The notes below the pieces were generated by a model. That model worked only from the letters and a program-made list of their open reading frames with translations, was not told where the DNA came from and ran no database searches. Shown here piece after piece: positions 52,040-62,897 of a stretch of 64,000 bases of DNA. Position numbers and translations under genes: made by a program. Source of the stretch: a phage; the sequence record PZ445450.1; one strand, given 5' to 3'. Within the stretch, counting starts at the first letter, position 1; each line of letters begins with the position of its first letter.

Positions 52040-52519
52040 TTAATCCAGTACTGTGCCTCCGGCTTTTCGGAAGACGTCCAGCATCTTCTCTATGTTTTCT
52101 ACACGCTGATCATACAGTTTACCAGCCCCCGGTGGTGGTGGGAAACTTGCCCAACGGCTACGGCATTTATAGATAGCTGAACGGATCCTTCCTTCATAAA
52201 TGTCATCAAGGGCTTTACATTCGCGGATCAACTGTTTTGCTATGGCATCCTGACTTGCCGGACCAAAATCTCTTAAGCCAAGCTGCTTCATGTAATGCTT
52301 AGCGTATTTCTCCAGAATTTGGTATCTGCCAAATGCTGAAGAGGTAAGGCCTGGTCTTAATTTGACATAAATACCGGGATGCCTGCTGAGATCCTCTATG
52401 TATTTTCCACCAACAAGGATGTGGTACGAAGCATCTTCGCCACCATACCTGTCAGTACCTTCTGAATGTGAAATCATCGAAAAAAATGCTCTCAATTGTA
52501 CATTTTTATCTAGCTTCAT
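52040..52519 (-). CDS. endolysin, lambda R-like lytic transglycosylase
   Basis: LRAFFSMISHSEGTD...ILVGG...GRYQIL...KQLGL...GGTV closely parallels lambda R (AFLDMLAWSEGTD...VIVGG...GRYQLL...KQLGL). Confidence 0.9.
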   Translation of the reverse strand: MKLDKNVQLRAFFSMISHSEGTDRYGGEDASYHILVGGKYIEDLSRHPGIYVKLRPGLTSSAFGRYQILEKYAKHYMKQLGLRDFGPASQDAIAKQLIRECKALDDIYEGRIRSAIYKCRSRWASFPPPPGAGKLYDQRVENIEKMLDVFRKAGGTVLD

Positions 52520-53232
52520 TTAAACCTCCGATTAAACCACTCTTCCAACGAATCATCATGTTTTGCATATTCTGCGGATTTTCTGACGCATACAGCATCC
52601 CACCACTCCGTGTATTGCCCCAAATGATACCTTTTGCTGTTTTCAGCAATCTGAACTTGCCACTTGTCAGTATCGTGTCTCCATTTAACACCTGTACACC
52701 CAGATGTGTTATTAAGTTTTAGTATTTTGCCTTTATAAGTACCTGAAACTAGCTGTTTTCTTGCCTCTACAGCCTCATCTTTGGTCTTAAAGTACCCAGC
52801 AAACCTATCTCCTTCGAGGGTGTTATATACTGCATACCATAAACCACATTTCTTATAAACGCCTAAGTTACCGTGCGGGTTATTTTTCGGGAGTAAATTA
52901 TTTCTTATGCGGTCCTTGTTGTTATCACTGTAGGTGCCCATAGAAAGATTTTCTATATTATCCTGGCCTTTTATATCATTTAAATGCCTGACAAGAAAGT
53001 TTTTTGTTAAAGAGTTATAAAACATGTCGTAAATAATTCTATGACGCTTCTTATCACCACCTTTATGAGAGTTGATTATAACATACCCTTGTGCATCATT
53101 ACAACCAGCTTTTGTGCCAGCTTTTATGAAGAGTTGATTTTTACCTCGGCCTCTATAATGATTCTTTGTCCAAACTAGCTCCCCATCTTTGTACCAAAAT
53201 GCAAAATTATCATTGAAGAAGAAATTAATCAT
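52516..53232 (-). CDS. HNH-AP2 homing endonuclease (free-standing)
   Basis: HNH core HRIIYDMF...VRHLNDIKGQDNIENLSMGTYSDNN plus two AP2-like repeats (GVYKK..GLWYAV...F.TKDEA; TGVKWRHDTDKWQVQI...LGQYTEWWDA). Confidence 0.75.
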   Translation of the reverse strand: MINFFFNDNFAFWYKDGELVWTKNHYRGRGKNQLFIKAGTKAGCNDAQGYVIINSHKGGDKKRHRIIYDMFYNSLTKNFLVRHLNDIKGQDNIENLSMGTYSDNNKDRIRNNLLPKNNPHGNLGVYKKCGLWYAVYNTLEGDRFAGYFKTKDEAVEARKQLVSGTYKGKILKLNNTSGCTGVKWRHDTDKWQVQIAENSKRYHLGQYTEWWDAVCVRKSAEYAKHDDSLEEWFNRRFK

Positions 53233-53385: not shown

Positions 53386-54669
53386 TCATTCCAGCACCTC
53401 CCAAGTGTCTGGGTCAACATTTCGGACGCAGATACCGACAGGGAATTGGTAGTTGTTGTCTTCTGTCCTTGATTGATATTTGAAGGTGACAAACTTGCCG
53501 ATCATTTCCTGCATCCTGTCATAGCTACGCTCCTCGTGCGTGCCTTTCATCTTCATTTTAACAACTATACCTTCCTTGTCAACGCAGATAAGAACACCTT
53601 CATCATTCTTATCTTTCTCAACGTCAATAACTTTCACCTCAGCATCGTTGAACTTTTTCCATTTCAATGCTTCAGATGTTCGCTGACCATATTCATATTT
53701 ACCACAGAAGTTACGCATGATAGTACCTTCATATCCTTCGGACATGAATACACCAACAGATTCTTCGCAATGATCAACTGTGTACGCAAGCTCTGCGTCA
53801 ACAACCTTGATATGGTCAAGCATCAGGGTGGTAATGGTATCTTCTGCATCCATAAGATCCTTGCATCGTCCAGATTCTGTTTCCGGATCCCACCATACCT
53901 TGTCACTAGGAATGTCGAAAATATGATACTCTAAGTCATAGCTACAGTACCCTCCGTAACGCAAATCATCACGAACAGGCTCAACATCAACAGGAATATC
54001 TACCTTATTGAAGTTTTTGTATGTTGATAAGCCTGCCTTAATTGCGGCATGACGGCGTTTTTTATCTGCCTCGTAGTCTTTATCGATCTCGGCCTGAATC
54101 TCTTCCTGTGTGCGCCAACGTTTAGCAAGAGACACTATTTTCTGCAGAGGCAGACCATGAATATAGATCTCTCCGTCGAGCTGTTTAATCCCGGTGGTGA
54201 AGTGGAAAGAACGAAGTTGCTCCAGAAGCTTTCCTTGAATAGGGTAGGACTTATTACCACGGGAAATAAATTTAGGCTCACCGTTTTGGAAAACAACCAG
54301 TAGACGAAGGCCATCTAACTTACGCAAGATCCAGCAGGGTAATTTAAGTGCCTTTCCACGCTTCAGGTAGTCATGCACCAGCATGGGTAAAAGGTCAACA
54401 CCCTGCTCGCAATCTTCCATATTTTCAACATACCCCAGACGGACTTGTTTTTCCCACTTACTGATCGCTTCCAGCTCAGCCTGTTGCTCAGCTGTAGTTT
54501 CATTGGCACGGCCCACGTTCTTAGGTGTGCAGATCGTCTCTTTGTATTGCAGTTTACCATCAAGCTTGCCAAACTCTACGATAACCTTATCACCATCCGT
54601 GAATACTTTCCACTGTTGGTAGCTGCCATCTTTGTTCAGTGCGTACAGTGTTGTTTTGATCTGATGCAT
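53386..54669 (-). CDS. DNA ligase (nucleotidyltransferase superfamily)
   Basis: Motif I KLDGLR, motif IV-like EGYEGTIMRN, motif V-like KMKMKG. Confidence 0.7.
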   Translation of the reverse strand: MHQIKTTLYALNKDGSYQQWKVFTDGDKVIVEFGKLDGKLQYKETICTPKNVGRANETTAEQQAELEAISKWEKQVRLGYVENMEDCEQGVDLLPMLVHDYLKRGKALKLPCWILRKLDGLRLLVVFQNGEPKFISRGNKSYPIQGKLLEQLRSFHFTTGIKQLDGEIYIHGLPLQKIVSLAKRWRTQEEIQAEIDKDYEADKKRRHAAIKAGLSTYKNFNKVDIPVDVEPVRDDLRYGGYCSYDLEYHIFDIPSDKVWWDPETESGRCKDLMDAEDTITTLMLDHIKVVDAELAYTVDHCEESVGVFMSEGYEGTIMRNFCGKYEYGQRTSEALKWKKFNDAEVKVIDVEKDKNDEGVLICVDKEGIVVKMKMKGTHEERSYDRMQEMIGKFVTFKYQSRTEDNNYQFPVGICVRNVDPDTWEVLE

Positions 54670-54938: not shown

Positions 54939-55233
54939 TGCAGTCCTCCTTCTGTAGTAGGTCTTTTATAGGATAAACAAGTAAGTGTGGGTCGTAATAA
55001 CGTATAGTCCTATTCTGCCACACTATGAACTTTATTACAACCAAATTTACAATATCTTTATCACCATGTAGCCCAACACACACATTTGTCCATATTTTGT
55101 GGTTGAAGACCTTGCTATCGATGTAGATTTTAGTGTCAAACTTATCTTCCATTCTACCAATAAGTTTGATCAGCTCCTTCATCTGGTCGCCAAACACAGC
55201 ATCTTTTTCAAGATCTCTGGAATGCTTGTACAT
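54925..55233 (-). CDS. hypothetical protein
   Basis: 102-aa ORF. Confidence 0.45.
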   Translation of the reverse strand: MYKHSRDLEKDAVFGDQMKELIKLIGRMEDKFDTKIYIDSKVFNHKIWTNVCVGLHGDKDIVNLVVIKFIVWQNRTIRYYDPHLLVYPIKDLLQKEDCNAVI

Positions 55234-55295
55234 AACTGACTACCTCACTGCATACTTTCCATAATAAGTAAAGCCGGGTAATCCCGGCTATGTTG

Positions 55296-56009
55296 TTAAA
55301 TATACTCTGTTACATCCTTGAAGCTCGAAGGCTTCATAATCTTACCTTTACTGTCAAGGAATATAATAACTTTATTGCCGTTGTAGAACTCCTCTTTAGC
55401 AACGAAACCTTCGTAGCGACCACCAAAACGACGCTCAAGATCTTTAATCTCCAACTCGATGAGTTGTTCAGCAGGCATATCTGCACTGGCACCGTGTGAA
55501 TGCCGTAGATGGTTGATCCGTGCAAACTTACTGTCATTAGATTTTAGAACCTTCCGCATCATCCCACACACATCCCCGCTAAGCTGGAACAGTAAAGCTG
55601 TTGATAACTCCGCTAGTCGGTAAGCTGACGCTCTTTGCTTGGATGTGTTTTTCGCAGCGATCAGTGTATCATAGAACTCACCGATCTTGAACTTAAGACC
55701 TCGCGGATTATCAAACAGGTTTGACCACTTTTCGTGGTTATCATTAACAAGATAAGCTGCATAACTTGTGACAACGTGAAGATCGCAGGCCTCTTTTAGC
55801 AGGTGATCTCCACCATCACCTTTCTCCAGCTCTTCCAAAACCTCATTGAACTCTTCCTCAATGAAGCTAAGCTGTAATTCGAATGGTGTGTATGATTTTT
55901 TCACTTTAGCTGCCACACGGTTCCAGTTTTCCACCCAGTTGGCAGACCAAAGGTAGTTTTCAGGCTGGGACAGTTTTTCCAGGTTGTCGATCAGTTTAGT
56001 ATTCAGCAT
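55296..56009 (-). CDS. MazG-like nucleotide pyrophosphohydrolase (putative)
   Basis: FIEEEFNEVLEELEKGDGGDHLLKEACDLHVV resembles the MazG EExxE...D metal-binding helix pair. Confidence 0.5.
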   Translation of the reverse strand: MLNTKLIDNLEKLSQPENYLWSANWVENWNRVAAKVKKSYTPFELQLSFIEEEFNEVLEELEKGDGGDHLLKEACDLHVVTSYAAYLVNDNHEKWSNLFDNPRGLKFKIGEFYDTLIAAKNTSKQRASAYRLAELSTALLFQLSGDVCGMMRKVLKSNDSKFARINHLRHSHGASADMPAEQLIELEIKDLERRFGGRYEGFVAKEEFYNGNKVIIFLDSKGKIMKPSSFKDVTEYI

Positions 56010-56022
56010 TAAAGGTCTCCTT

Positions 56023-56784
56023 TTAAAGTTCCATAAAGTTTTCTACAGTTTCAATAAATGCTTTATCAGAGAAAGCGTCAACAGCACCGTTAAACCATAC
56101 AGGGATCCCGCGATCCTCATATTGATAAAGGTCGCTACGTGAAATGCCACTTCCATCTGCACTCTGCGAATCATACTTGTTTACAATCAGCAGTTTTGTG
56201 CCTTTACAAGTAGCAGGAAACAATTCCCAGTTAAAATTAATAACTGTGTTAGAACAACCTACCAGGATCACCATATCATTGCTTGTGAGAGATGTCAACA
56301 GGTCATACATGTCTGTATACTTAGGAGCAACCTCACCGAAGAACACTACATTGGGCTTAACCCAGGTATACTTGCCTGTATCTACCTCCGTGTATCCGAT
56401 ATTTTTAATTACATCATTACCTTCAGCATCTTCGTAGGTGATTTCAGGCAAATACCCGTGGACATGTAAAATATCTTCATGTTTTACACCAGCACGCTCC
56501 AGCAAATCATCTACATTGGTAGTAAGGTTGATCACACGACCAGACCAGCGGGAATACCACTCAGCGATCCGAAGATGTGCAAGGTTAGGATCAACACTGC
56601 CCAGAGCTACACGACGTGCATTGTAAAAGTCATGCACCTTATAGTAGTTCTTGGCAAAGGTGTGGATGTTGCACACCTCATCGATGCTGAAATTCTCCCA
56701 CATTGCAGTGCTACCAGATCGGAAAGTGGGAATACCAGATTCAGCGCTCAAACCAGCACCGGAGATAATAATCAGTCGTCGCAT
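56023..56784 (-). CDS. Sir2 (sirtuin) family NAD-dependent protein
   Basis: GAGLSAESGIPTFRSG, TTNVDDLLERAG, HVHGYL, PNVVFFGE sirtuin motifs; no obvious CxxC zinc ribbon. Confidence 0.8.
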   Translation of the reverse strand: MRRLIIISGAGLSAESGIPTFRSGSTAMWENFSIDEVCNIHTFAKNYYKVHDFYNARRVALGSVDPNLAHLRIAEWYSRWSGRVINLTTNVDDLLERAGVKHEDILHVHGYLPEITYEDAEGNDVIKNIGYTEVDTGKYTWVKPNVVFFGEVAPKYTDMYDLLTSLTSNDMVILVGCSNTVINFNWELFPATCKGTKLLIVNKYDSQSADGSGISRSDLYQYEDRGIPVWFNGAVDAFSDKAFIETVENFMEL

Positions 56785-56792
56785 AAGTGTCC

Positions 56793-57143
56793 TCAGTAGA
56801 TGTTTTGTTTAATCTCTATTCCAAACTTCTTGAATGAGTCAGCAGCAAGCATAAATTTACGAGCTGCCGATGGATTAGAAGTATGCACGAAAATAATCAC
56901 GTTGTCAATAAGTGGTGGCTTTCCGAATACAAGTTTCTCCTCTAGCGCAGAGAAGCAGTCGTACCCTTCAAGCACTTCACCTAGATCATTGTCAAAATGC
57001 CACTCAGAAACGCTCCTGTAGAGCTTTCTATTATCGTTAATAAAATCCATGAACTCAGAAGAGTTCTTCAGCCAAAGAGCATCTTGGATTCCGTAATTTG
57101 ACGGATCTCTCAAGTCATCTAGCCACACAATCAACTTCTTCAT
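56793..57143 (-). CDS. hypothetical protein
   Basis: Internal ATG (MKKLIVWLDD) forms ATGA overlap with the RNA ligase stop. Confidence 0.45.
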   Translation of the reverse strand: MKKLIVWLDDLRDPSNYGIQDALWLKNSSEFMDFINDNRKLYRSVSEWHFDNDLGEVLEGYDCFSALEEKLVFGKPPLIDNVIIFVHTSNPSAARKFMLAADSFKKFGIEIKQNIY

Positions 57144-58075
57144 TGCATATAGTCCTCGTTGTGAAAATAGCAATCAAGTATCTCACGGCGTTCCTGCTCC
57201 AGGAGGCAGTTCCACACATCTTCTGTGTAATTGCTACGAATGAAGTTTACCATGCCATAAAACTCTTCGTCAATACGTTTAAAGATATCATCATCCCAAA
57301 TCTTCCAAGCTTTACCCCTCATTACGGCCTTCCGTGCCAAATAGTATGGAGACTTGATCTTCAGCTGCAGGTCATAAGGGTAGTAAGGCTTACGGATCAT
57401 ATACCCTTCGCCCCTTGTTTCTGCAGCTAATTCTTTTGCATAGCTGAACGGGATTTCACGCACAGTGTGAGGACGTTTTGCACCAAGGTATTTGGCAATT
57501 CCATCTAAAGCTGCTTCTGGTAGCATTATTCCAGAATCATTATATCTGCAACCTATCAAATATGCGCCATGGTCTTCTTGAACAATATGCGGATCTGAAG
57601 GGTGACAAATTTCAAACATGAATGTCATGTTTTCATTGCCCATAACCTTCTTGATAAGATCTAAATTACCACATTGCTCTTGGATGGTTTCCTTTGCAAG
57701 GTTACAATATGGAGAATCAAGAGACCCGGTTGTTGAGAACAATAGGTCACCTTTATGAGATGATACCACACCAAGGAATCCGTTCTTTTTCTCTACCGCA
57801 GTCACAAGCTTATTGTCAGGCAGGTTGGTGGAGTTTTCTCCCAAGTTAAACACTTTTGTGAAGGGCCATGCCACAACATTTCCTTCATTACCTACAACAA
57901 TGCCTCGGCACTCCAGTAAACGAGGGGACAAATGCCATAAATTGTTGTAAAATACTTTTCTAGCATATTTATAGATCTTTAACCCGAGATCTGGGTAATA
58001 CCTACTGGTTACAAGACCTTTGTCAACTAGGTCGTCTGCATTAAAATACTTCATCATACGTTCCTCATTTGTCAT
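57140..58075 (-). CDS. RNA ligase-like nucleotidyltransferase (Rnl family, putative)
   Basis: Motif I EKKNGF, motif IV EGYMIRK, motif V LKIKSPYY; divergent from kinase/phosphoesterase genes. Confidence 0.6.
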   Translation of the reverse strand: MTNEERMMKYFNADDLVDKGLVTSRYYPDLGLKIYKYARKVFYNNLWHLSPRLLECRGIVVGNEGNVVAWPFTKVFNLGENSTNLPDNKLVTAVEKKNGFLGVVSSHKGDLLFSTTGSLDSPYCNLAKETIQEQCGNLDLIKKVMGNENMTFMFEICHPSDPHIVQEDHGAYLIGCRYNDSGIMLPEAALDGIAKYLGAKRPHTVREIPFSYAKELAAETRGEGYMIRKPYYPYDLQLKIKSPYYLARKAVMRGKAWKIWDDDIFKRIDEEFYGMVNFIRSNYTEDVWNCLLEQERREILDCYFHNEDYMQ

Positions 58076-58118
58076 TTTGTCAGTCTATCCTGTCACACAA
58101 ATAACCTAGTGTCAACAC

Positions 58119-58147
58119 TTGAAATTAACAAAACAGTTAGATATACT
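58119..58147 (+). promoter_or_regulatory. sigma70-like promoter (TTGAAA-N17-TATACT) in divergent intergenic region
   Basis: -35 58119-58124, -10 58142-58147. Confidence 0.5.
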
Positions 58148-58175
58148 ATCGTTGAAATTAAAACGGAGGGTCACT

Positions 58176-58586
58176 ATGTCTAAAATGCTATATATCGTGC
58201 GTGGTCTACCAGGGTCTGGCAAATCAACACTGGCAAATGCGCTATCTTTAGAGGGTCTGTATCCACATTTTGAGAAAGACATGTTCTGGTATGACGATGA
58301 CGGCAATTACAACTGGGATGCAAGTAAAGTAACACTCGCAGCGAAATGGTGCAAAGATAACGTAGAAGATATGATGCGTATGGGATACGACCGTATCGTG
58401 GTAAGTAATACGTTTACAAAAGAAAAACATGTGCAGGAATATGTTGACATGGCAATCAGTCATGGGTATAGTTATACCGTGATCGTGGTTGAAAACCGCC
58501 ACGGTAATAAAAGCATTCATGATGTTCCAGACAAGGTTGTGGATCGTATGGAACGCCAGCTTAAAAACTGCATTAAACTTAAATGA
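58176..58586 (+). CDS. polynucleotide kinase-like P-loop kinase
   Basis: ggaggg RBS; MLYIVRGLPGSGKSTLA Walker A at extreme N-terminus, as in Pnk kinase domains. Confidence 0.65.
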   Translation: MSKMLYIVRGLPGSGKSTLANALSLEGLYPHFEKDMFWYDDDGNYNWDASKVTLAAKWCKDNVEDMMRMGYDRIVVSNTFTKEKHVQEYVDMAISHGYSYTVIVVENRHGNKSIHDVPDKVVDRMERQLKNCIKLK

Positions 58587-58593
58587 GGAATGT

Positions 58594-59148
58594 ATGAAAT
58601 ACTTTGTAACAAGCGACACACACTTTCTCCACCAGCGGGTCATGGAGTTTGATTCATGTCAAAAACACAGATCTCAGTATGATCACAATCTTGACAGTAT
58701 GAATGCGGGAATCATCGCCGAATGGAACTCTGTTGTGTCACCTGCAGACACTGTGTTCCACTTGGGAGATATTGCGTGCACTAATGATAAGAATATCAAC
58801 AACTTACTTCCAGATATTCTAAATATGTTGAACGGACATATTATTCTTGTTCGTGGCAACCATGACACAAGGACGACTGTCAGAATTATGAAAGAGTTCG
58901 GTCATGAGGTTGTAGATTATTACGAGCTTCGCCACAACAAGAATTTGATCTGTATGAGCCATTACCAATTTGCAAAGTGGAACAGAAAGCCTCACGGATC
59001 AGTCCAACTGTTCGGTCATGCTCACGGAACCACACAACAGTTGTTTGGCAGGCAGCTTGATGTCGGTTGGGATGTGTGGGGGAGACTCTTACCATTAGAA
59101 GAGGCATACCGTATTGCAATGAGTTTTGCTATTGACAGCGGGGAGTAA
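58594..59148 (+). CDS. calcineurin-like metallophosphoesterase
   Basis: SDTHF, GDI, VRGNHD, GHAH motifs; gagg RBS before internal ATG. Confidence 0.7.
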   Translation: MKYFVTSDTHFLHQRVMEFDSCQKHRSQYDHNLDSMNAGIIAEWNSVVSPADTVFHLGDIACTNDKNINNLLPDILNMLNGHIILVRGNHDTRTTVRIMKEFGHEVVDYYELRHNKNLICMSHYQFAKWNRKPHGSVQLFGHAHGTTQQLFGRQLDVGWDVWGRLLPLEEAYRIAMSFAIDSGE

Positions 59149-59195
59149 TCCCTGCTATTTTAAAGAAAATTGCCACACAAGGAGAATCAGGAGAT

Positions 59196-59546
59196 ATGAA
59201 AGATGGGGATAAGCTGCTATATCTTAAAGTCCCCCTTGAAATACTGTCTATGTCAAAAGTTTTGAATGACACAACTGGAGAGGTTGTTGTTCTTGACTTA
59301 TATGACAAGATCGTATACTGCTACCTGCACAACTGGTACAAGCTTGGAGGAAATTCACGCTTCACACCCAGCACAAGGAAAATTGCAGCAGATGTTGGGA
59401 TAAAGAAAACAAAAGCAGCAGCGTGCGTTAAAACTTTAGAATGTGCAGGAGTGGTTGAAATATCCACACAAGGGAGAGGTAAAAGATGCACATTTTCCAA
59501 AGTTTTGCCACCAGAAGAGGTTATTCGAATGTCAACAACTGGTTAG
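59196..59546 (+). CDS. winged-helix/HTH DNA-binding protein (putative initiator or repressor)
   Basis: aaggagaatcaggag RBS; HTH-like TRKIAADVGIKKTKAAACVKTLECAGVVEI; immediately upstream of iterons. Confidence 0.5.
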   Translation: MKDGDKLLYLKVPLEILSMSKVLNDTTGEVVVLDLYDKIVYCYLHNWYKLGGNSRFTPSTRKIAADVGIKKTKAAACVKTLECAGVVEISTQGRGKRCTFSKVLPPEEVIRMSTTG

Positions 59547-59620
59547 ACCAGTAAAAACTTAAATATCTGTACTATAAGGATTCGTATGTTTTATGTCCAC
59601 CCCAGAGCAGAGGATAGTAA

Positions 59621-59705
59621 CTGTCCGTGATACGGACACTACTGTCCGTCACGCGGACACATCTGTCCGTAATACGGACACTAACTGTCCGTGATACGGA
59701 CACAT
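59621..59705. repeat. Four tandem palindromic iterons CTGTCCGT-N4-CGGACAC
   Basis: Units at 59621, 59642, 59663 and 59686 at 21-23 bp spacing; each contains inverted half-sites GTCCGT/ACGGAC. Confidence 0.85.
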
Positions 59706-59893
59706 AAAGAATATAACTAAAATAACTAAATAATAAAAAAATAAAAGATCTAGTACTTATGGTACTAAAGTGCATATACTTAACTTATGTAGAATATACT
59801 AGATCCTAAGTACCATGTTTTAAATTTATTACTTATTGTTGGTAGTGTCGGCCCTTCATTGGCACTCGCCTACGAGGGGCGAGATGCCGGGCC
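59706..59893. other. AT-rich tract with nested palindromes followed by a long GC-rich hairpin
   Basis: 59706-59845 is strongly AT-rich with agtac-ttatg-gtact and agatctagta/tactagatc inverted repeats; hairpin 59850-59893 with ggccc/gggcc outer stem and ggca+ctcgcc / ggcgag+tgcc inner stem. Confidence 0.6.
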
Positions 59894-60208
59894 TCCATAG
59901 TGCACACAATGACAGAAGTGCATACATGCAGGACTGTTAACATGTGTGGGAGCGAAGCGATAGCGCAGGCCAAAGGCAGAGCACTAATGTTGACCACCGA
60001 CGAAAGCTTGCCAGCGCCGGAAGGAGTCGGTTGAGAGACTCCCGCGCGAGTTCTGATAAAGTTTATGTGTGGAAACTGACAAGAAGGCTCCTAAATCGCT
60101 CCACAGCTATATAAACTATACCAAGTAAGGCAATCGCACCAGTTTGATAGAAAAGCTCGTTACAAAGCGATACAGTGAGTTTTTCTATAACTTGAAGAGG
60201 AGGCTGCT

Positions 60209-62085: not shown

Positions 62086-62160
62086 GCCCTGTTAGCTTAG
62101 TGGATAAAGCAGCGGCCTTCTAAGCCGTTGACACTGGTTCGAGTCCAGTACGGGGTGCCA
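62086..62160 (+). tRNA. tRNA-Arg (anticodon UCU)
   Basis: Cloverleaf folded by hand: acceptor gccctgt/acggggt (one G-U), anticodon loop CUUCUAA, T-loop TTCGAGT, CCA encoded. Confidence 0.8.
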
Positions 62161-62164
62161 AATT

Positions 62165-62251
62165 GGGGAGTTATCCCGTAGAGGTAGCGGTGTAGACTGT
62201 AAATCTATTGTCATTGCGACTCGGGTGGTTCGACTCCACCACTCCCCACCA
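62165..62251 (+). tRNA. tRNA-Tyr (anticodon GUA), class II
   Basis: Acceptor ggggagt/actcccc, anticodon loop CUGUAAA, long variable arm, T-loop TTCGACT, CCA encoded. Confidence 0.75.
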
Positions 62252-62365
62252 AATTTATATTTTTAAATGCATAAATCATACAGATAATGACATTGATATT
62301 TATCGTCGTTTATACTAGTCACTAACTGCTCGAAAATCAGTGTCATTATCAGTGTAATTTATAAA

Positions 62366-62456
62366 GGAGGGTAGGGAGCAATGGTGCTCAAGCGGTCTTG
62401 AAAACCGTCCCGTTGAGGATGACTCGATGATGGTTCGATTCCATTACTCTCCGCCA
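62366..62456 (+). tRNA. tRNA-Ser (anticodon UGA), class II
   Basis: Acceptor ggagggt/actctcc, anticodon loop CUUGAAA, long variable arm, T-loop TTCGATT, CCA encoded. Confidence 0.75.
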
Positions 62457-62554
62457 CATTGTTGACCTTGTAATTAAGCGAAAGCCGGAAGCAGAACCGG
62501 ATTATCAAATGTTACAGTCGTCATCGCCGACTAGCCACATGGTCAACATATTGC

Positions 62555-62653
62555 GCTAGGTAAGCCCTTTGGCAAGGGCGAGGATTTTTAATCCTGAAAA
62601 TAGACGAGGTAGTCGTTGAATACATAGGTGGTTCGATTCCATCACCTAGCACC
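62555..62653 (+). tRNA. aberrant tRNA-like gene (candidate Lys-UUU-like anticodon loop; ~30-nt insertion before T-arm)
   Basis: Acceptor gctaggt/acctagc, D-arm gccc-tttggcaa-gggc, T-arm ggtgg-ttcgatt-ccatc. Anticodon region aggatttttaatcct gives UUUUUAA loop only with a 4-bp stem; ~30 nt lie between it and the T-arm; 3' CC only. Confidence 0.45.
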
Positions 62654-62657
62654 TTTT

Positions 62658-62733
62658 GCTGATGTAGCACAATTGGCAGTGCAATTGATTTGTAATCAAT
62701 AGGTTGCAGGTTCAAGTCCTGCCATCAGCACCA
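62658..62733 (+). tRNA. tRNA-Thr (anticodon UGU)
   Basis: Acceptor gctgatg/catcagc, D-stem gcac/gtgc, anticodon loop UUUGUAA, T-loop TTCAAGT, CCA encoded. Confidence 0.8.
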
Positions 62734-62734
62734 T

Positions 62735-62809
62735 GGCCCTGTAGCTGGAAGGTTCAAGCAAGCGACTCATAATCGCCAGACGGTGGTTCAATTCCACCCA
62801 GGGCCACCA
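62735..62809 (+). tRNA. tRNA-Met (anticodon CAU; elongator Met or Ile2 lysidine type)
   Basis: Acceptor ggccctg/cagggcc with G1-C72, anticodon loop CUCAUAA, T-loop TTCAATT, CCA encoded. Confidence 0.7.
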
Positions 62810-62820
62810 AATAATAAATA

Positions 62821-62897
62821 CTCCGCGTAGCTCAGCTTGGTAGAGCGCCTGATTTGGGATCAGGAGGTCGAGTGTTCGAATCACTCCGTGGAGACCA
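62821..62897 (+). tRNA. tRNA-Pro (anticodon UGG)
   Basis: C1-G72 acceptor typical of tRNA-Pro, anticodon loop UUUGGGA, T-loop TTCGAAT, CCA encoded. Confidence 0.8.

Follow-up and report, generated by a model that had tools for sequence, protein, structure and literature searches.

A stand-alone Pnk-like kinase, a metallophosphoesterase and an Rnl1-type ligase as the core of a predicted RNA repair module in an rV5-like phage

Does the group of kinase, phosphoesterase and ligase genes found in an rV5-like phage encode a system for the repair of broken RNA, and if so, how would its components share the work? The question is raised by a 64,000-nt stretch of phage DNA (sequence record PZ445450.1, part of a ~136-kb genome; hereafter the window), in which an earlier note had proposed that an RNA-ligase-like nucleotidyltransferase, a divergently encoded Pnk-like P-loop kinase and a calcineurin-type metallophosphoesterase (MPE) form a healing-and-sealing module for cleaved tRNAs. 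Our analysis supports the healing-and-sealing reading by the catalytic motifs, by the folds and by the co-inheritance of the kinase, MPE and ligase genes in varied orders, and we assign a probability of about 0.7 to RNA repair by these three enzymes according to a T4-like logic, directed against host ribonucleases that stop translation. The gene list of the note holds for the ligase, the kinase and the MPE, but it overlooked three further genes of the ligase operon, which code for a cREC protein (cyclic-phosphate-processing receiver-like protein), a Sir2-family protein (sirtuin) and a MazG-like protein. The full unit is made up of six genes (55296-59148), i.e. an operon of four genes on the minus strand and the kinase-MPE pair that diverges from it (Table 1). 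The module is not a new system; it has already been annotated and described computationally, hence the value of the present analysis lies in confirmation, better boundaries and linkage statistics.

The strongest evidence for a repair module is the conserved linkage of its genes. Two sets of IMG/VR loci, 80 anchored on the kinase and 80 anchored on the ligase, were analyzed for neighbors within 10 kb and dereplicated at 80% identity, which yielded 40 kinase clusters and 51 ligase clusters. The kinase is accompanied by an MPE in 30 of its 40 clusters and by an RNA ligase in 29 (both partners in 25, neither in 5); the neighbors are always encoded on the same strand, mostly less than 1.5 kb away, and often overlap the kinase gene. 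The ligase found there may be Rnl1-like (16 clusters) or Rnl2-like (16 clusters), some clusters having both; for instance, contigs of freshwater phages show overlapping kinase and MPE genes, with a ligase gene of the Rnl2 type (PF09414) located 1.8 kb downstream. From the side of the ligase, the kinase was found in 45/51 clusters, the MPE in 45/51 and both in 43/51, usually as flanking genes and in the orders MPE-ligase-kinase, kinase-ligase-MPE and ligase-MPE-kinase. Besides, the phrog_8238 profile ('RNA ligase', 737 positions) corresponds to a fusion, whose N-terminus matches our kinase and whose C-terminus matches our ligase. Because the triad is linked in most of the ~90 dereplicated and diverged viral loci, its co-location is not due to chance; the three genes are co-inherited across varied orders and two ligase families, as predicted for a functional healing-and-sealing unit. 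On the other hand, genes for cREC, Sir2 or MazG are rare, being present in 6-8 ligase clusters out of 51 (Sir2 in 7, MazG in 8), and the carriers are ~145-kb enterobacterial myophages; thus, the triad is the ancient core, to which this lineage has added cREC, Sir2 and MazG. The six-gene set was found also in a KP12-like Klebsiella phage (L008) and in loci L092-L104. In L008 the genes for the MPE, ligase, cREC, kinase, Sir2 and a DNA ligase are all co-directional, with the ligase and cREC adjacent as in the window; Vequintavirus (L092) alone has the divergent layout.

The ligase shows a significant match to the RNA_lig_T4_1 family in Pfam (PF09511; 55.3 bits, cut-off 28.3, E-value 1e-14) and to phrog_562 (E-value 7e-66). 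Searches of the PDB with the single sequences of the ligase and the kinase returned chance matches only, and both assignments required family profiles and predicted folds (structures were predicted for these two proteins). The profile of 37 ligase homologs aligned by hhalign with residues 47-248 of T4 Rnl1 (probability 97.5%, E-value 8e-12), which was also the sole match of the family profile in the PDB (E-value 2e-12). Nucleotidyltransferase motifs I, III, IV and V are present (K96-x-N-G99, E155, E223-G224 and K239-x-K241). Residues R57, K74, K96, G99 and E155 correspond to R54, K75, K99, G102 and E159 of T4 Rnl1, and E223, G224, K239 and K241 to E227, G228, K240 and K242, K96 being the counterpart of the AMP-accepting K99; these nine equivalents of the T4 catalytic residues are invariant in all 51 diverged clusters. 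The Rnl1-specific N-terminal ATP contacts (T4 R54, K75 and F77) are matched as well, by the invariant R57 and K74 and by F76, which is F in 47/51 clusters and Y in the remaining 4. The score against the T4 RnlA equivalog model TIGR02308 is 38.7 bits, compared with a cut-off of 242. Judged from its sequence, the protein is an intact RNA ligase of the Rnl1/Rnl6 superclade with predicted catalytic activity, and it forms a distinct clade. The 311-aa reading frame is probably too long at the 5' end: the true start is likely to be M7 or M8 (58057 or 58054) rather than 58075, since a GAGGAA ribosome-binding site precedes these codons and the homologs begin there.

The kinase was assigned to AAA_33 (E-value 5e-11) and to phrog_505 'polynucleotide kinase' (E-value 2e-10). 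Its family exhibits an invariant P-loop GxxGxGKS/T (G10, G15, K16 and T18) as well as invariant D35, N78-T79 and E106-N107-R108-H109, with S77 being nearly so. The relationship to the kinase domain of T4 Pnk (residues 1-142) was identified by hhalign with 96% probability (E-value 2e-9) and confirmed by the AlphaFold2 model (mean predicted local distance difference test score 91), for which the top Foldseek matches in the PDB were CthPnk (from Clostridium thermocellum), T4 Pnk, the tRNA kinase PSTK, mammalian PNKP and Pnkp1 (template modeling scores of 0.71-0.76 to CthPnk and T4 Pnk, CthPnk being the best). The family comprises at least ~8000 matches, and among the 120 matches listed all are stand-alone proteins of ~107-160 aa. 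The 136-aa protein of the window likewise ends with the kinase fold and carries no fused phosphatase, and neither the window nor the ligase-anchored loci yielded a match to the T4 HAD phosphatase domain. These results bear out the Pnk-like identity of the kinase and agree with the suggestion that an MPE takes the place of the HAD domain fused to T4 Pnk. A second RNA ligase was looked for within the window and none was found.

The MPE scored above the Pfam cut-off for both Metallophos_2 and Metallophos and matched phrog_547 'phosphoesterase' (E-value 1e-51). The metal-site motifs S7-D8-x-H10, G58-D59, G88-N89-H90, H123 and G141-H142-x-H144 are invariant, as judged on 14 diverged homologs, in agreement with the proposed calcineurin-type identity. 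The closest solved relative, and the sole significant one, is the hypothetical Aquifex protein aq_1665 (1xm7; E-value 3e-17 by profile). A function at the RNA 3' end, i.e. the healing of 2',3'-cyclic phosphates or 3'-phosphates, is suggested for this protein by its gene context, since its clade has no characterized member. One environmental homolog (L072) has degenerate metal motifs (SNQQ, LGN and GEFD) and is probably inactive.

What the genes are, that their catalytic motifs are intact, which folds are predicted and how the genes are linked is established; from this we infer the enzymatic steps, the division of labor at the 3' end and the tRNA substrate as follows. The kinase would phosphorylate the 5'-OH end, the MPE, possibly together with cREC or replaced by it, would open and remove the cyclic phosphate to produce a ligatable 3' end, and the Rnl1-type ligase, adenylylated on K96, would then seal the break. 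The cREC, Sir2 and MazG-like proteins are additions of the rV5-like and KP12-like myophages, probably for dealing with 2'-phosphate or ADP-ribose by-products or with alternative end chemistries.

Several observations weigh against this scheme. In the ligase clade, the position of T4 K119 is occupied by an invariant threonine (T116), and K119 is known from the mutational literature to be essential in T4 Rnl1. The T4-type C-terminal tRNA-specificity domain (T4 residues ~255-374) is absent; the alignments end at T4 residues 248-250, and motif V is followed by ~65 helical residues versus the ~120-aa domain of the T4 enzyme. The profile search with the MPE did not reach CthPnkp or lambda phosphatases, and the weak matches included a nuclease MPE, PdeM and YfcE, hence a nuclease or nucleotide-directed role of this protein is possible. 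The MPE of the window is also missing a C-terminal D-H-H motif, which homologs from other phages retain almost without exception (the C-terminus reads ...AIDSGE in the window and DHGE in the KP12-like phage). Moreover, an ATP-dependent DNA ligase gene (53386-54669) belongs to the same minus-strand gene string as the module. As to the tRNA genes, seven of them were indeed identified by ARAGORN about 3 kb away, as the earlier note had stated (62086-62897, 2.9 kb beyond the MPE gene), and rV5 shares this nearby tRNA region at 98%; however, of 43 related loci no more than 4 had tRNA genes that ARAGORN detected at a distance of up to 10 kb from the kinase. Since the adjacency is not conserved, it says nothing about the substrate, and we rejected it as functional evidence. 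Finally, a literature search found no experimental (biochemical or genetic) work on the six proteins or their close relatives, and a search for RNA repair experiments in Vequintavirus found nothing either.

Which other functions could the same genes have? One alternative differs from the scheme above solely in the 3'-end chemistry. The ligase would require a 2'-phosphate, as Trl1 does; cREC or the MPE would convert the cyclic phosphate to a 3'-OH,2'-PO4 end, the junction 2'-phosphate would be transferred to NAD+ by Sir2 in the rV5-like phages or by the host KptA elsewhere, and MazG, the MPE or cREC would clear the ADP-ribose products. Such a pathway would agree with the proposal that the sirtuin of the V5-type neighborhood is a KptA analog (Iyer, Burroughs, Anantharaman and Aravind 2022, Viruses 14:1977, PMC9503650). 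It would agree also with four clade-invariant residues of the ligase, N98, H163, K249 and R253, which are located at K96+2, E155+8, K241+8 and K241+12 and correspond to D (D101), I, H and S in T4 Rnl1. In CthTrl1-LIG, ligands of a sulfate that may mimic the 2'-PO4 have a similar spacing (Asn150 at K148+2, His227 at E218+9, Arg334 and Arg337 at K325+9 and +12) and have been described as unique to the Trl1 clade (PMC6379707). The phage residues thus resemble the 2'-phosphate pocket of Trl1, the correspondence being one of sequence spacing only. Nevertheless, the 7 Sir2-linked clusters have exactly the same signature as the 44 Sir2-free ones, therefore Sir2 is not an obligatory partner; the family profile of the ligase, which reaches T4 Rnl1 in the PDB, does not reach Trl1; and no Tpt1/KptA homolog was found in the window or within 10 kb in ~160 related viral loci, so that linkage to Tpt1/KptA was rejected as support for a 2'-PO4 pathway. 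On balance we regard this pathway as rather unlikely, and it is equally doubtful that the clade is 2'-phosphate-dependent and Trl1-like instead of T4-type, with the MPE or cREC serving as a cyclic phosphodiesterase and not as a phosphatase. Were the pathway real, the removal of the junction 2'-phosphate by a phage sirtuin would constitute a new NAD+-dependent sirtuin reaction, and bacterial Tpt1/KptA, which is not known to have a natural substrate, would gain a physiological one.

The remaining two explanations dispense with RNA repair, and both are minor ones; neither accounts for the linkage with RNA ligases. The kinase and the MPE could heal 5'-OH/3'-phosphate nicks in DNA for the nearby ATP-dependent DNA ligase, with the RNA ligase homolog being incidental or working at DNA-RNA junctions. 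The presence of the DNA ligase gene in the gene string of the module, and directly after Sir2 in L008, would fit such a role, as would the activity of T4 Pnk-type kinases on both DNA and RNA and the weak similarity of the MPE to PdeM ('ligase-associated DNA damage response'; E-value 3e-4, far below the cut-off). Yet the 29 of 40 kinase clusters counted above have an Rnl1- or Rnl2-like RNA ligase as the partner (the only ligases queried in the environmental loci were RNA ligases), and both the fold and the motifs of the ligase in the window are of the RNA-ligase type, which makes DNA-end processing very improbable. Even less credible, in our opinion, is a counter-defense directed at small molecules, in which the kinase, MPE, cREC, Sir2 and MazG would act on derivatives of NAD+ and ADP-ribose, on cyclic nucleotides or on alarmones, and the RNA ligase would be a mere neighbor. 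The kinase was labeled just 'a nucleotide kinase' in PMC9503650, and cREC, Sir2 and MazG were assigned there to NAD+/ADP-ribose networks; NUDIX genes are found near the kinase-MPE pair in 10 of the 40 kinase-anchored clusters, and some phage calcineurin-like phosphodiesterases were predicted to degrade cyclic-nucleotide signals in the jumbo-phage paper from the group of Iyer et al. However, the nearest matches to the modeled fold of the kinase are enzymes that phosphorylate polynucleotides or tRNA rather than nucleosides or nucleotides, and the tight linkage to two families of RNA ligases together with the phrog_8238 fusion would be difficult to account for if there were no polynucleotide substrate.

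The three open reading frames (ORFs) of the triad were recovered at the positions and on the strands given in the earlier note, and the divergent layout was confirmed, with a 100-bp spacer between the ligase gene and the kinase-MPE pair (Table 1). The genes within each arm are tightly packed: the stop codon of the ligase overlaps the ATG of cREC as ATGA, the gaps are 8 nt between cREC and Sir2 and 13 nt between Sir2 and the MazG-like gene, and the MPE start follows the kinase stop after 7 nt. The spacer contains a sigma-70-like consensus match on the plus strand (TTGAAA-17-TATACT, 58119-58147) and the kinase ribosome-binding site GGAGGG (58167-58172); the promoter scan found no comparable minus-strand site in the spacer. 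A hairpin of 7 bp, 6 of them G-C, with T-rich tails on both strands, is a candidate terminator that may close the ligase-cREC-Sir2-MazG operon. The promoter scan returned 32 promoter-like sites versus 18 expected, and the promoter and terminator calls, being consensus matches, settle nothing.

Table 1. Predicted genes and regulatory elements of the six-gene unit, in order of position in the window
Feature	Position	Strand	Basis of assignment
Candidate terminator hairpin, GC-rich	55272-55289		terminator scan, pattern match
MazG-like nucleotide pyrophosphohydrolase, 237 aa, most distal gene of the operon	55296-56009	-	phrog_671
Sir2-family (sirtuin) protein, 253 aa	56023-56784	-	PF02146, phrog_2162
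cREC protein, 116 aa	56793-57143	-	PF20274, phrog_1479
Predicted Rnl1-type ATP-dependent RNA ligase, 311-aa ORF	57140-58075	-	PF09511, phrog_562
Divergent spacer with sigma-70-like site and kinase ribosome-binding site	58076-58175		consensus match
Stand-alone Pnk-like P-loop kinase (predicted 5'-OH polynucleotide kinase), 136 aa	58176-58586	+	AAA_33, phrog_505
Calcineurin-type dinuclear metallophosphoesterase (MPE), 184 aa	58594-59148	+	Metallophos, Metallophos_2, phrog_547

Of the products of the three additional operon genes, cREC matches PF20274 (cREC_REC; 52.8 bits, cut-off 27, E-value 6e-14) and phrog_1479 (E-value 1e-33), Sir2 matches PF02146 (E-value 7e-28) and phrog_2162 (E-value 1.5e-108), while the MazG-like protein matches phrog_671 (E-value 2e-21) and has no match in Pfam. 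Sir2 retains the NAD-binding motifs GAGxSxxSGIPxFR and TTNVD and the catalytic histidine of HVHG. Sirtuins normally carry a Zn-ribbon (CxxC...CxxC), and the corresponding stretch of the phage protein has no cysteines. In L008, genes for a nicotinate phosphoribosyltransferase (NAPRTase) and a phosphoribosyl pyrophosphate (PRPP) synthetase, i.e. for NAD+ salvage, are located ~5 kb upstream of the RNA-repair module (L008 1-1809), which fits an NAD+-consuming step in that lineage.

Among the ten neighboring ORFs scanned against Pfam (52.5-60.8 kb), no methyltransferase, Hen1 included, and no 2H cyclic phosphodiesterase domain were found. The gene directly after the MPE (59196-59546, plus strand) encodes a helix-turn-helix protein of 116 aa (DUF6945/HTH_36), which matches phrog_12838 'replication initiation protein' (E-value 2.5e-80) and is labeled as a transcriptional regulator in AlexBoehm, a phage of the BASEL set. 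A 238-aa ORF for an HNH homing endonuclease (52516-53232, minus strand) separates the endolysin gene from that of the ATP-dependent DNA ligase; it represents a mobile-element polymorphism, because AlexBoehm has only a 125-nt gap at this position.

The 4.8-kb stretch around the module is 96-99% identical to that of more than 100 Vequintavirus (rV5-like) Escherichia myophages, and 99.2% identical to that of AlexBoehm, whose record calls the products of the triad RNA ligase, polynucleotide kinase and putative phosphoesterase. Labels in other records include 'RNA ligase 1 and tail attachment protein', 'ATPase' and 'NEDD4-binding protein 2'. Eighteen GenBank records of the MG0656xx series named 'Campylobacter phage' are ~97% identical to positions 55200-60000 of the window, and their host labels look doubtful.

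The tRNA cluster contains one unusual member, a 99-nt tRNA-like gene (62555-62653, plus strand) reported by ARAGORN as 'tRNA-??? (atcc)'. Its score with the tRNA model of Rfam is 35.5 bits (gathering score 29), and it folds into a cloverleaf with a 7-nt loop UUUUUAA, readable as the anticodon UUU (Lys), and with a 29-nt variable region that forms an extra stem of 5 bp (minimum free energy z-score -3.7). The gene is at least 93% identical in ~120 Vequintavirus records, including rV5, where its annotation is inconsistent (none, tRNA-Lys or tRNA-OTHER). Since PrrC and PARIS are directed at tRNA-Lys(UUU), the gene may provide a nuclease-resistant tRNA-Lys substitute.

RNA healing and sealing is the classic answer of phages to host anticodon nucleases, and tRNA-cleaving defenses are now known to be common. 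The solution described here differs from that of T4 in that the kinase stands alone, an MPE is employed and the Rnl1-like ligase is short. It is widespread among environmental phages, and the rV5-like coliphages, members of which are found in the BASEL set and in collections used for therapy, possess the extended six-gene version. The main interest is in the biochemistry, namely in the roles of the MPE, cREC and Sir2 at the 3' end and in the need of the ligase for a 2'-phosphate.

How does the module compare with known systems of RNA repair? One of the closest is the pathway of T4 Pnkp (PseT) and Rnl1 (RnlA), which counters the PrrC anticodon nuclease. The logic is the same and the catalytic domains of the kinase and the ligase are homologous, but the phage kinase stands alone, a separate MPE replaces the fused HAD (DxDxT) 3'-phosphatase of T4, and the ligase differs from T4 Rnl1 by the missing C-terminal domain, by T116 in place of K119 and by N98 in place of D101. 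The fungal and plant Trl1 (ligase, kinase and cyclic phosphodiesterase domains, LIG-KIN-CPD), which acts together with Tpt1, has its activities in a single chain, whereas the phage proteins are separate and the scanned ORFs include no 2H domain. The bacterial Pnkp-Hen1 and Pnkp1-Rnl-Hen1 systems (PMC2190708, PMC3675462, PMC4411300) comprise the same three chemistries, which in the phage are predicted, and also employ an MPE for RNA 3'-end healing (PMC2190708, PMC3675462). However, Pnkp of Clostridium thermocellum is a single kinase-MPE-ligase polypeptide with a lambda-phosphatase-like MPE and an Rnl4 ligase, while the phage has three separate genes; the phage MPE belongs to the AQ1575/1xm7-like clade, its profile has no match to the Pnkp phosphatase, and Hen1 is absent from the scanned neighborhood. 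A 'split Pnkp', in the sense of a homolog of the bacterial enzyme, was therefore rejected, as both the MPE clade and the ligase type differ.

The V5 neighborhood itself was described in PMC9503650 as a predicted NAD-linked RNA-repair system, namely the sirtuin-centered type 2 neighborhood with Escherichia phage V5 and Proteus phage Mydo as prototypes. The gene set given there consists of a sirtuin, a T4-like tRNA ligase, cREC (a family defined in the jumbo-phage paper, which also mentions calcineurin-like phosphatases for RNA repair), a nucleotide kinase, MazG and an occasional calcineurin-like phosphoesterase. In that proposal, the sirtuin acts as a KptA/Tpt1 analog that removes the RNA 2'-phosphate, and the resolution of cyclic phosphates or ADPr>P falls to cREC, the calcineurin-like enzyme and other proteins. 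Given this description and the precedent of bacterial Pnkp, the idea of an MPE as the 3'-end healer is not new. The locus analyzed here is the same system as the type 2 neighborhood, with all six genes present and no structural difference. What our analysis adds is that the kinase-MPE-ligase triad is a widespread core, present in most environmental phages without a sirtuin or cREC, that the MPE is a near-constant member (45 of the 51 ligase clusters) rather than an occasional one, and that the ligase clade possesses invariant residues of its own.

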